From positions 336,470 to 400,469 of the forward strand of contig NZ_JAAAPJ010000005.1 in the NCBI RefSeq assembly GCF_009909145.1: a DNA stretch of 64,000 nt. Reading direction: 5' to 3'. Shown here in pieces: positions 7,530-9,594 of the stretch. The stretch comes from Corallococcus silvisoli (lineage in GTDB: Bacteria > Myxococcota > Myxococcia > Myxococcales > Myxococcaceae). The stretch's first letter is position 1, and the number at the start of each line of letters is the position of its first letter. The notes below the pieces were generated by a model that saw only the letters and a program-made list of their open reading frames with translations, made no database searches and was not told the DNA's origin. The position numbers and the translations under genes were made by a program.

Positions 7530-8516
7530 TCATCGGCGCTCGAACAGCTCGTAGAGCGCCTTGTCGGGGAGCGAGAGCGCGCGGTTGGCGATGCCAGGCG
7601 CCTTGGCGGCCCGGACGCCCCATGGATTCGGCGGGAGCAAGCCCTGGATGGAGACACCTCCTCTCACGCGGAACTGCCGGATGGAGCTCAGGTTGCGAAG
7701 GCGGCCCGCGGGGACGGCTCCAGAGAGCAGGAGCGCGCGGATCAGCGCATGCTCCACCGCCCTGCGAGCCTGTCGGGTGTTGGGCTGAATCGTCCCGAAC
7801 CAGACCGTGATGGGCTTGGGCAGCAGCCCCCCCTTCTGGGTGAGCCCCATCTGGTAGAGGCTCAGCAGGCGTCCTCGCCAGCGCCCCTGGAAGCTGTCCG
7901 TCTCGCCCACGTAGAGGGGAAGCCCCTCCTCCTCCACGACGTACAAGCCACCTCCGGCGGGAAGCGCGGAGAACGGGTGGCGATCAATCTTCCGCACCGA
8001 CCAGGAGAGGACCTTCGCGGTGACGGGGCCCCGCTGTGCCTCGAGCTCCTGCGACTCCGCGGGAGGGGGCCCGTCCTGCCCGGGCGGAGCGTCCGAGGGT
8101 TCCTCGGGAGGCGCCACATCCGGCGGCGGCTGCGCCGCGGCCACCGGCTCGACGCTGTCGGGAGGGGGCTCGTTCAGGGCCGGCTGGTAGAGCGGGTAGC
8201 CGTACGGCCCTCCGCCGTAGACCACCCAGGGGCGGCCCCTCGGCCACCGCCGCCCCGGCCTCGGCCCCTGCCCCTGCCCCTGCCCCTGCCCGGGGCTCCG
8301 CCACGCACGGGCCGGTCTCGAACCCGAACGCCAGACCTGCGCCCGGGGGACGCCCATCATCCCGCGTCCGACCCCGAACCGCCTCGCGCCGGGCTGGAGT
8401 GCACGAGCGCGGCGCGCAGGTGGCGCACGGAAGGACCGCGCGAAGTGGCCCTCCTCTTCGCCTTCCCACTCGGACTCCAACGCGTCTTCGCTCTCGTTCT
8501 CGTACCACTCATTCAT
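7530..8516 (-). CDS. Hypothetical protein with an acidic/Pro-Gly-rich N-terminal half and a GIY-YIG-like C-terminal domain
   Basis: N-terminus is EWYENESEDALESEWEGEEE, then (GQ)n and PP-rich low complexity. C-terminal GLYVV..LPLYVGETDSFQGRWRGRL resembles the GIY-x10-YIG-R arrangement of GIY-YIG nucleases. Its ATG overlaps the upstream stop by 8 nt. Confidence 0.55.
   Translation of the reverse strand: MNEWYENESEDALESEWEGEEEGHFARSFRAPPARRARALQPGARRFGVGRGMMGVPRAQVWRSGSRPARAWRSPGQGQGQGQGPRPGRRWPRGRPWVVYGGGPYGYPLYQPALNEPPPDSVEPVAAAQPPPDVAPPEEPSDAPPGQDGPPPAESQELEAQRGPVTAKVLSWSVRKIDRHPFSALPAGGGLYVVEEEGLPLYVGETDSFQGRWRGRLLSLYQMGLTQKGGLLPKPITVWFGTIQPNTRQARRAVEHALIRALLLSGAVPAGRLRNLSSIRQFRVRGGVSIQGLLPPNPWGVRAAKAPGIANRALSLPDKALYELFERR
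8262..8291. repeat. Hexanucleotide (cccctg)n microsatellite encoding (GQ)n within the 7530..8516 gene
   Basis: Four to five perfect cccctg units are visible. Potential slipped-strand length variation site (in-frame). Confidence 0.5.
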
Positions 8517-9594
8517 GACGTGTCCTCCGCTGCTGCCTTCCGTCGACGGCTTCCACCAGCGCCTCCACTGCGTGAGTCAGCTCCTCCGCGCCGTGCCGCG
8601 CGGTGAGGATGAAGCTCACCGACACCTCCGGACCGCAGCGCGAGCGCTGGAGCACGGTCCGGATGCCACGCCGGTGCAGCCGCTCGTGGACCGCTCGCGG
8701 GTTCACCCCGCGAGGAAGCTGGATCCGCTGCACCGGGAACCGCCCGCCCACCGAGGCCAACCCCGACCGCCGCAGCCGCCCCCGGAAGTGCGCCACCCGC
8801 AGCGCCAGCGCCTCCCGGAGCGCGTCGCCTTTCCGGCGATTGATGGCCACCGCGTGCTCGGCGGCATGGAGATCCGCCACCGAAGGTGGACTGCAATGCA
8901 TCCGCGTCTCGCTGCGCTCCTCGTACCTGGCCACCACCCGCGCGCCGCCGGCCATCAGCGCCATCGGCACACCCAAGGCCTTCGCCATCGAGCCGCACCA
9001 CAGGACATCTGGCCCGTGGATGCCGTACCAGCGCAGCGAACCCCCTCCGCCGGCTCCGTATGGCAGGCCGGGCCCCGGCATGCCGAACACTCCCAAGGCT
9101 TGGGTGTCGTCCAGGATGAGCAGGCCCCCATGGGCCCGGACCACCTCCAGGTACGCGTCGAGCGGCGCCAGCGCGCCGCAGCCCGGACACCAACCGTCGC
9201 AGACCACCACCGGCCGGAGCCCCTGGCGCGGCGCCCGTGCCAGGAGCCTCGCCAGGGCCTCGGGCGAATGATGGGGAAAGCTCCTCACGGGTCCGCCGCG
9301 CGCCACCACCCGCTCGAACCCCCACCGCACCACCGGGTAGCTGCCTTCATCCCAGTAGAGGGCCACGGGGCGCCCCGCGAGCGCTCCGAACACGTCCCAG
9401 AACAGGTGCAGCGTGGAGCGGGCGAACAGCCCCCGCTCGCAGCCCACCAGCTCCGCCAGGGCGCGTGACGTCTCTTGCGTTCCGGGGGGCTCCTCGAGGA
9501 TGGCCGGAGTGCCCAGGGTGAGCCGCTCCCACGGCGCGAGCGATCCGCTGGAGTGCTCCAGGCCCAGGTAGAGCGCGGAGGTGAAGTCGAGCAC
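8509..9594 (-). CDS. PLP-dependent alpha-oxoamine synthase family enzyme (BioF/KBL/SPT/CqsA-like class-II aminotransferase fold)
   Basis: Aligns to BioF landmarks: FTSALYLGL (substrate loop, cf. FSSNDYLGL), VVCDGWCPGCGALAPL...LILDDTQALGVFG (cf. the DDAHG motif) and SMAKALG (PLP-lysine position). GTG start at 9594 with GGGGGA 7 nt upstream. Confidence 0.8.
   Translation of the reverse strand: MLDFTSALYLGLEHSSGSLAPWERLTLGTPAILEEPPGTQETSRALAELVGCERGLFARSTLHLFWDVFGALAGRPVALYWDEGSYPVVRWGFERVVARGGPVRSFPHHSPEALARLLARAPRQGLRPVVVCDGWCPGCGALAPLDAYLEVVRAHGGLLILDDTQALGVFGMPGPGLPYGAGGGGSLRWYGIHGPDVLWCGSMAKALGVPMALMAGGARVVARYEERSETRMHCSPPSVADLHAAEHAVAINRRKGDALREALALRVAHFRGRLRRSGLASVGGRFPVQRIQLPRGVNPRAVHERLHRRGIRTVLQRSRCGPEVSVSFILTARHGAEELTHAVEALVEAVDGRQQRRTRHE

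Follow-up and report, generated by a model that had tools for sequence, protein, structure and literature searches.

Which reaction a protein resembling the alpha-oxoamine synthases (AOS) might catalyze, and in which company it does so, is the question raised by the gene at positions 8509-9594 of a 64,000-nt stretch of Corallococcus silvisoli DNA (contig NZ_JAAAPJ010000005.1; this whole stretch is called the window from here on). The AOS enzymes, among which are BioF, KBL, ALAS, SPT and CqsA, are the best sequence matches of this protein in PDB and NCBIfam, and for this reason we refer to it as the AOS-like protein. Its conserved residues mark it as a fold-type I pyridoxal 5'-phosphate (PLP) protein of the AOS lineage with a rebuilt active site, and its gene is the fourth gene of a conserved operon that has spread horizontally. 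The reading that we favour, with a probability of about 0.5, is that of a PLP enzyme with non-Claisen chemistry that is an accessory of an undescribed effector or lysis cassette.

The open reading frame (ORF), on the minus strand, has the codon-position G+C pattern typical of a true gene in a genome of about 70% G+C, with a value of 0.87 at third codon positions, and its neighbours are alike in this respect. It cannot be longer, because an in-frame stop, which is the stop codon of the preceding gene, lies 18 nt 5' of the start. In the alignment to Escherichia coli BioF (PDB 1bs0), residue 2 of the AOS-like protein pairs with BioF residue 42 and the protein covers BioF residues 42-379, so that fold and length are alike apart from the N-terminus. 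The segment of about 40-50 residues that in AOS enzymes precedes the motif (N/D)F(S/T)SNDYLGL is missing, and the AOS-like protein begins at this motif. The late start is a trait of the whole family, since homologues from all phyla begin MLDFTSALYLGL. An earlier, sequence-only reading of this DNA had placed the ORF here and had noted that about 35 N-terminal residues are absent with respect to BioF; both statements were confirmed, the missing segment being of about 40 residues.

The protein was scored with Pfam and NCBIfam profile models and the scores were compared with the curated cut-offs. The general Pfam model Aminotran_1_2 gave 38.5 bits (cut-off 19.7). The NCBIfam bioF model (TIGR00858) gave 59.9 bits as compared to a cut-off of 426.45, the BioF/Kbl-related model 48 bits (cut-off 535), the SPT models 24-48 bits (cut-offs 500-670), the KBL models 40-42.5 bits (cut-offs 460-493), the CqsA-type model (NF005526) 36 bits (cut-off 428) and the ALAS model 26 bits (cut-off 338). 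The assignment to the AOS family made by the sequence-only reading therefore holds as far as the best match goes, but the protein lies far under every AOS equivalog cut-off and the residues that define these enzymes are replaced. A search of 1.84 billion representative proteins found 498 clusters (at 50% identity) at E <= 1e-30, 870 at E <= 1e-10 and only 2,065 at E <= 1e-3. These numbers indicate a discrete family, well apart from the bulk of AOS enzymes.

The residues of the active site were mapped by aligning E. coli BioF onto the window protein, together with an alignment of 30 diverse family members. The Schiff-base lysine (BioF K236, here K205), the aspartate that binds the pyridine nitrogen (D204, here D162) and the position of T233 (here S202) are invariant in all 30 members. 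The triplet H133-A134-S135 of BioF is Y86-P87-V88 in the window protein (Tyr in 30/30, Pro in 25/30, Ile or Val in 30/30), the second catalytic histidine, H207, is replaced by Q165, and S179 and E175 by P137 and D133 (30/30 in each case). BioF N47 corresponds to A7, with Ala or Ser in the family. BioF R349 aligns with R317, which is Arg in 19 of the 30 members, and the adjoining R319 is Arg in 24, the alignment of this loop being uncertain. According to a review of these enzymes (PMC6148460), the His-Ala-Ser triplet is strictly conserved in AOS enzymes, and His159, His234, Asp231 and Arg390 (SPT numbering) are needed for substrate binding and catalysis. The histidine of the triplet (BioF H133, SPT H159) is stacked against PLP, where it also anchors the thioester and the carboxylate of the substrate; the second histidine (BioF H207, SPT H234) is hydrogen-bonded to PLP O3', with a Ser179/Glu175 relay; and the conserved arginine (BioF R349, SPT R390) binds the substrate carboxylate after acyl-CoA binding. 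Of the features that define membership in the AOS family, the lysine and the aspartate are thus present in the AOS-like protein, and the His-Ala-Ser triplet and the second histidine with its Ser/Glu relay are absent.

The family also shows motifs of its own. A near-invariant C-P-G-C (protein residues 136-139) stands where BioF has FSMDG, and two elements have no BioF counterpart: an insertion PYGxGGGGS with an invariant GGG (residues 183-185) and an invariant T-R-x-H-C-S-P-P-S (residues 230-238). At the site, H63, R231 and H233 are further invariant polar residues beside Y86 and Q165. The cysteine pair of C-P-G-C could be redox-active or metal-binding, and the D-x-x-Q and Cys motifs bear a resemblance to those of cysteine desulfurases, but a desulfurase-like reading was set aside. 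The conservation of the cofactor residues suggests that the protein very probably still binds PLP, and judging from the alignment it is best described as an AOS or fold-type I PLP variant with changed catalytic residues. Long "fusions" of the AOS-like protein were rejected, these being read-through into the downstream cargo gene or frameshifted gene calls.

The gene had been described as stand-alone, which turned out to be wrong. In 69 of 72 loci with enough upstream sequence it is immediately preceded, on the same strand, by three genes that we call A, B and C; an Amidohydro_2 gene is present in 48 of 60 loci with enough downstream sequence, and the gene of a sigma-54 activator, mostly convergent, in 54 of 60 loci with enough flank. 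These counts derive from 80 loci, fetched for synteny and searched by tblastn with the window proteins, which cover at least 10 phyla and include Myxococcota, Acidobacteriota, Nitrospirota, Nitrosomonas and Nitrosospira isolates, Methylococcaceae, Geobacteraceae, Planctomycetota with anammox bacteria, Chloroflexota, Verrucomicrobiota, Binatia, Gemmatimonadales, Bradyrhizobium and "Entotheonella". Relatives of the AOS-like protein are encoded in 341 of 185,579 genomes when one genome per species is scanned. The genes of the window (Table 1) are tightly packed, with gaps of 6 nt between A and B, 2 nt between B and C, 15 nt between C and the AOS-like gene and 7 nt between the cargo gene and the amidohydrolase gene; the AOS-like and cargo genes overlap.

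Contigs of a Nitrospira metagenome-assembled genome (MAG) and of a Competibacteraceae MAG carry the same neighbours in the same order as the window, and the gene order agrees also in M. stipitatus and in two more metagenomic contigs. By BLAST, the Nitrospira and Competibacter counterparts are 52-53% (A), 64-65% (B), 51-56% (C), 52-56% (AOS-like), 64-71% (Amidohydro_2) and 52-58% (sigma-54 activator, loci L001 and L002) identical to the window proteins. Matrices of pairwise identity were compared over 46 complete loci. The correlation coefficient r between the AOS-like protein and B is 0.79 (Mantel test, 0/999 permutations), and with the activator, C and the amidohydrolase it is 0.81, 0.68 and 0.63, respectively, which fits with inheritance as one unit.

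With regard to the wider context, the sequence-only reading had stated that bioA, bioB, bioD, reductase and acyltransferase genes are not nearby and that the partners are unusual, an amidohydrolase and unknown proteins. Both points were borne out: none of those genes is found among the large ORFs scanned in the window, the neighbours are as described, and the same scan gave no biotin, sphingolipid or acyl-carrier genes. Neither a sensor kinase nor lipid genes lie near the AOS-like gene, and the cassettes of all loci inspected are devoid of a histidine kinase. An acidobacterial variant was also observed (L021, 10001-19739; L049, 6040-15134), in which the AOS-like gene converges on an M20 dipeptidase gene and on a block of six minus-strand genes for unknown proteins, of which one is 25% identical to B and another has an acidic, cargo-like N-terminus; A and C were not recognisable in these two loci.

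Table 1. Positions in the window of the cassette genes and of the elements upstream of gene A
Feature	Position	Strand	Remarks
Sigma-54 enhancer-binding protein (activator) gene	5319..6671	+	convergent; probable start MKTWIRF
Amidohydro_2 metal-dependent hydrolase gene	6686..7522	-	278 aa; Pfam PF04909, 82.8 bits
Cargo gene	7530..8516	-	328 aa; overlaps the stop of the AOS-like gene by 8 nt
AOS-like PLP protein gene (subject of this study)	8509..9594	-	361 aa; GTG start
Gene C	9610..11481	-	623 aa; orphan family
Gene B	11484..12827	-	447 aa; orphan, all-helical; invariant HEVGHQ (HExxH), E233, D237
Gene A	12834..13463	-	209 aa; true start MHDVDRT; orphan family
Sigma-54 type -24/-12 promoter, TGGCAC-N5-CTGC	13522..13536	-	about 60 nt upstream of the gene A ATG at 13463
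Two 18-nt palindromes, core GAAGC-N2-GCTTC	13581..13598 and 13622..13639	-	41 nt apart

The AOS-like gene is not found in every cassette. Looking up genomes via B, we found that Sorangium sp. So ce131 has A-B-C-cargo-activator and Archangium lansingense has A-B-C-Amidohydro_2-activator, both without the AOS-like gene. In a metagenome scan with an alignment of B, which yielded 35 loci with both B and C and with 1.3 kb or more of sequence past C, the AOS-like gene directly followed C in 30 loci and was missing in 5 (about 15% of cassettes); in these 5 loci no substitute enzyme was found and a leader-bearing cargo gene came directly after C. Cassettes lacking the AOS-like gene retain the same activator, and Sorangium, one of the two genome examples, also retains the -24/-12 motif. 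This result shows that the AOS-like gene is dispensable for the cassette and a frequent accessory. Since some cassettes lack it, the minimal core consists of A, B, C and the activator, and the AOS-like, Amidohydro_2 and M20 genes are frequent accessories.

The operon appears to be under sigma-54 control. The pattern TGGCA-N6-7-TGC matches only twice on both strands of the window, one of the matches being the promoter of gene A, and of the 72 loci, 49 have a -24/-12 element in the 450 bp that precede gene A, as compared to 0.04 expected per 450 bp. The two palindromes, GCGAAGCGCGCTTCGGCG and GCGAAGCAGGCTTCGGCG, are located 45-105 nt upstream of this promoter. The same GAAGC-N2-GCTTC dyad occurs upstream of A in 8 of 72 loci belonging to several phyla, at 0.28 per kb with respect to a background of 0.016 (about 17-fold), and the palindromes are candidate binding sites for the sigma-54 activator. 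Inside the operon no sigma-70-like promoters and no intrinsic terminators were found. The activator matches Pfam Sigma54_activat with 180.8 bits, plus AAA_lid_14 and HTH_8; judging from its sequence, the N-terminal region is probably receiver-like, without an obvious acidic pocket, and is followed by an AAA+ sigma-54 interaction domain and a Fis-type helix-turn-helix. No ligand-binding domain is recognisable in it. Its match to the LuxO model is weak (198.7 bits, cut-off 800), and its AAA+ and helix-turn-helix part matches RtcR/PspF-type PADLOC models.

The three core proteins encoded downstream of this promoter, like the AOS-like protein, the cargo protein and the amidohydrolase, have no match in PADLOC-DB v2 at E <= 0.1. 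The start of A given in Table 1 agrees with that of its Nitrospira and Competibacter counterparts, which begin likewise with MHD[IV]DRT. Its N-terminus is rich in Phe and Glu, with F-E repeats and a net charge of -16 over the first 60 residues, and is followed by two stretches, one cationic and amphipathic (+6), the other hydrophobic and rich in Gly, and by a basic C-terminus with KIILYGV as its last residues. It matches nothing in Pfam or NCBIfam, its weak PHROG matches are at the level of composition, to phage tape-measure and tail-lysin proteins where these are rich in Gly, and none of its 19-residue windows has the hydropathy typical of a membrane helix. We propose from these features that A may be a membrane-active pro-protein, whose acidic pro-region would mask the cationic Gly-rich segment. 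Among 133 ORFs of the variable region described below, 16 contain an A-like module as a fusion. An internal duplication of gene A is seen in some genomes, where one protein of 390-452 aa has two A modules in tandem (L002, 5785-6957; L088, 8637-9995), and A-like modules also occur fused behind Ntox16 or OmpA-like domains in cargo of Nitrospira and Nitrosomonas.

The role proposed for B, in view of its invariant HExxH motif, is that of a zinc metallopeptidase, which would probably recognise or remove acidic N-terminal leaders; a PDB profile search with B gave nothing. It contains an invariant basic loop, AIRRARTRxPGGG (protein residues 149-165), which is the least confident part of the structure model, with a predicted local distance difference test score (pLDDT) below 50; one might speculate that this loop docks the acidic leaders. 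C consists of an N-terminal beta-sandwich and a conserved helical region of about 470 residues, in which many His, Asp, Glu and Trp are invariant; it has more than 3,500 homologues and zero matches in a PDB profile search. Two C homologues, P0252 and P0294, are named "8-amino-7-oxononanoate synthase" in public databases, yet they lack a PLP domain, and they seem to have taken this name from the gene next to them.

The AOS-like gene and the amidohydrolase gene are separated by a variable region with 1.1-10.8 kb of differing genes, here called cargo. Pfam was run on 103 non-redundant ORFs of this region, and the domains found were PG_binding_1 (49), PG_binding_3 (23), OmpA (14), Trypsin-like (7), M20 (6-7), Amidase_2 (5), VanY, Peptidase_M74, M23 and DUF2272 (3 each), Muramidase (2) and PLD, LCAT, CHAP, 3D, Ntox16 and Rv2525c-like (1 each). 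Many ORFs of the region have an acidic aromatic N-terminus and no signal peptide. The strict form of a leader motif of the FExEPF type, F[EA]x[EI]P[FLWY], was looked for within 70 residues of the N-terminus: 25 of 121 cargo ORFs have it vs. 2 of 499 control ORFs of the same loci and none of 12 M20 genes; in 19 of the 25 it starts at residue 7. In the cargo protein of the window, whose N-terminus (MNEWYENESEDALESEWEGEEE) is acidic and aromatic, a low-complexity part is followed by a C-terminal domain of about 170 residues with a GIY-YIG-like motif, the match being weak (E = 0.084, 13.6 bits). Its homologues at the same position were found only in Myxococcaceae (L004, L007, L008), and a similar C-terminal domain occurs in a protein of another organism (P0362), behind a leader and a peptidoglycan-binding region.

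Two metabolic-type enzymes accompany the cargo. Amidohydro_2 is the most conserved protein of the cassette, with a mean pairwise identity of 0.70, and a sequence search found no PDB relative of it at E <= 0.01. The M20 protein passes the NCBIfam "dipeptidase" equivalog (PRK08201) with 549 bits (cut-off 441), and its gene still adjoins the AOS-like gene in the rearranged acidobacterial variant. In a subset of cassettes the M20 gene (protein of about 480 aa) stands just before the amidohydrolase gene, for example in L028 (13534-15012) and also in L009, L012, L024, L031, L036, L060, L077, L078 and L081; it is absent from the window.

These observations can be joined in a possible mechanism. The sigma-54 activator would turn on one operon encoding A, as a masked membrane-active protein, B, as a leader-recognising or leader-cleaving peptidase, and the orphan helical protein C, and then an interchangeable cargo without Sec signal, made mostly of peptidoglycan-binding hydrolases and also of proteases, lipases and nucleases. 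The cargo would reach its target through A-dependent membrane damage, with an endolysin-like logic, or after release. The likeliest purpose would be the triggered release or activation of envelope-degrading effectors, and the outcome could be either a holin/endolysin-like self-lysis or an attack on neighbours. The AOS-like protein would bind PLP via Lys205 and Asp162 and form an aldimine with an amino acid or a small peptide. A Claisen condensation would most likely not follow, because the His-Ala-Ser triplet and the equivalent of His207, which hold the carboxylate and the acyl-thioester, are lost, and another reaction at C-alpha, such as transamination, racemisation or elimination, would be more likely. 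The protein would probably act in the cytoplasm, together with Amidohydro_2 and the M20 dipeptidase, and its substrate would be a metabolite linked to the cassette, either an amino acid or a peptide; examples are precursors or fragments of cell-wall stem peptides, for self-protection or salvage.

A more specific form of this proposal is put forward as tentative, and we give it somewhat less than even odds. It holds that A, B, C and the activator represent an unrecognised class of cassette that matures and releases leader-tagged, envelope-degrading and nucleolytic effectors without a known secretion machine, B being an HExxH protease, C an orphan helical protein and A a membrane-active pro-protein, and that the AOS-derived PLP protein runs a new non-Claisen reaction on an amino acid or peptide, for instance in editing cell-wall precursors for self-immunity or in providing a cofactor for effector activation. 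The cassette may indeed be a new kind of system, considering that its core is shared with none in Pfam, NCBIfam, PADLOC, PHROGs and PDB. Literature searches on its components in combination, on locus tags and on Pfam names gave no paper that describes it, and the papers of the Aravind laboratory on polymorphic toxins and conflict systems do not cover it.

Several points weigh against the favoured reading. The cassette could serve in the killing of neighbours, in lysis of the producer or abortive infection, in phage defence or in other roles. The functions suggested for A, B and C derive from motifs and composition alone, B lacks detectable structural similarity to any known peptidase, and the structure model of C is poor (pLDDT 53), only the beta-sandwich (residues 9-115) being confident. 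The leader motif, strict or loose, is present in only about 20-30% of cargo ORFs, immunity genes were not recognised in the cassette, and the correlation of identity matrices would also arise from a shared species phylogeny. As for the AOS-like protein, PLP binding is suggested by conserved residues only, the Tyr and Gln at the replaced positions could still allow some condensation chemistry, and its link with cell-wall peptides is a guess from the types of the neighbouring enzymes.

Other explanations of the AOS-like protein were weighed against the same evidence. One of them is a pseudoenzyme comparable to eukaryotic SPT1/LCB1, a PLP-fold subunit with a regulatory or otherwise non-catalytic task that would act as scaffold or partner for C or B. 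This is unlikely, although it would account for the loss of the canonical catalytic histidines and of the N-terminal segment and for the tight coupling to C across the 15-nt gap, and non-catalytic AOS-fold subunits have a precedent (PMC6148460). Unlike SPT1, however, the AOS-like protein keeps the Schiff-base lysine, the pyridine-nitrogen aspartate and the Ser/Thr phosphate-binding positions, invariant across phyla, and the new invariant polar residues (Y86, Q165, H63, R231, H233) line the site; this pattern is typical of an active enzyme. An apparent fusion of C with the AOS-like protein was rejected as a frameshift artefact. We consider even less probable a CqsA/LqsA-like synthase, whose alpha-hydroxyketone or aminoketone would activate the neighbouring sigma-54 activator, directly or not, as CqsA does upstream of LuxO in Vibrio. 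AOS enzymes are indeed the nearest relatives in sequence, an activator of the NtrC/LuxO class is adjacent and the amidohydrolase could tailor a small molecule; nevertheless, the CqsA-type model is missed by a wide interval, no family member retains the His-Ala-Ser triplet and the second histidine, on which thioester condensation depends, the cassette has no sensor kinase, and the activator has no recognisable ligand-binding domain. In addition, since cassettes without the AOS-like gene keep the activator, the regulator does not depend on this enzyme. The suggestion of the sequence-only reading that the gene might make an autoinducer or an unusual aminolipid thus failed on the score, the catalytic residues and the lack of sensor kinase and lipid genes nearby, and the related idea that its product is the regulator's signal was not borne out either.

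The AOS-like protein might itself be an effector or toxin, delivered or released, that depletes an essential amino-acid-derived metabolite, since it heads the variable cargo region directly after C and is optional, like the cargo genes. This is quite improbable, because it has no acidic leader or FExEPF motif, its N-terminal MLDFTSALYLGL is part of the catalytic fold, and, in contrast to the shuffled cargo, it belongs to one orthologous family whose variation follows that of the core genes. As for an ordinary BioF, KBL or SPT lying here by chance, automatic annotation in several sources does call the homologues "8-amino-7-oxononanoate synthase", but this explanation is close to refuted: the scores are 7- to 13-fold under every equivalog cut-off, the defining residues are replaced, and the non-biotin context is kept in 69 of 72 genomes from many phyla in a family restricted to 341 of the species genomes scanned. 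For the same reasons, namely scores, residues and gene context, a BioF role was rejected, and the view that the protein is neither a housekeeping BioF nor a sphingolipid SPT was upheld.

Other features of the window lie outside the cassette. The VanY gene at 3415-3975 was tried as a cassette member and rejected, because its product has a normal signal peptide. A predicted lipoprotein is encoded at 3995-4867 on the minus strand; it has repeated Cys-rich motifs (CCxG...C) at the C-terminus, no Pfam match and codon-position G+C values of 0.53, 0.62 and 0.83, unlike the neighbouring genes. Divergent from the cassette are two adjacent genes, at 13647-16040 and 15983-17599, for DUF4139/DUF4140 proteins of 797 and 538 aa, the former with a long Pro/Ala-rich low-complexity insert. 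At 47217-51509 (minus strand) a protein of 1,430 aa is encoded that has both an adenylate/guanylate cyclase domain and an ATPase domain of the AAA_16 (STAND-type) kind, and the ORFs at 29778-31832 (684 aa) and 42915-44702 (595 aa) have no Pfam match at E <= 1e-5.

An AOS-fold protein with both catalytic histidines swapped, and under strong purifying selection in at least 10 phyla, is a case of rewired PLP specificity, and in hundreds of genomes the automatic name "8-amino-7-oxononanoate synthase" is wrong. The gene also points to a compact cassette, whose homologues number in the thousands and occur in nitrifiers, anammox bacteria, methanotrophs, acidobacteria and myxobacteria, and whose payload looks like an inventory of lytic enzymes. 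Should the cassette be a device for lysis or antagonism, it would have a bearing on the ecology of biofilms and flocs in soils and wastewater communities, and it could be a source of new lytic enzymes and of a new N-terminal tag for targeting or activation.

Compared with known systems, the AOS-like protein shares with BioF, KBL, ALAS, SPT and CqsA the fold, the Schiff-base lysine, the pyridine-nitrogen aspartate and the Ser/Thr before the lysine, and differs from them by the missing N-terminus, the Tyr-Pro-Ile/Val, the Gln, the Pro/Asp pair, the CPGC motif, the GGGG insertion and a gene context unrelated to biotin, haem, threonine, sphingolipid or quorum-sensing pathways. The CqsA-CqsS-LuxO module of Vibrio and the LqsA-LqsS-LqsR module of Legionella resemble the cassette in having an AOS-fold protein beside a regulator, LuxO of Vibrio being a sigma-54 activator; the cassette differs in having no sensor kinase and no CqsA-type catalytic residues, and in an activator that persists without the AOS-like gene.

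To lysis cassettes and polymorphic effector loci the cassette, which is known from its genes alone, is alike in logic only. Unlike holin/endolysin and bacteriocin or tailocin release modules, it has an A that is not a transmembrane holin, no phage structural genes and sigma-54 control, it adds three large orphan proteins and metabolic-type enzymes, and its cargo extends to lipases, proteases and nucleases. With these modules it has in common modular peptidoglycan hydrolases without Sec signals, as in canonical endolysins, a cargo architecture in which PG_binding_1 is joined to amidase, muramidase, peptidase or CHAP domains, a small, membrane-active-looking A in the same operon and one dedicated regulator. 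With respect to polymorphic toxin and effector systems, such as the type VI secretion system (T6SS) and the extracellular contractile injection systems (eCIS/PVC), the loci inspected contain no secretion-apparatus genes of known type and no recognisable immunity genes, but there is likeness in the effector domain types (Ntox16, OmpA-like, PLD, amidase), in the short common N-terminal marker placed on unrelated effectors, and in the conserved core that stands beside hypervariable effectors directed at cell-wall, membrane and nucleic-acid targets.

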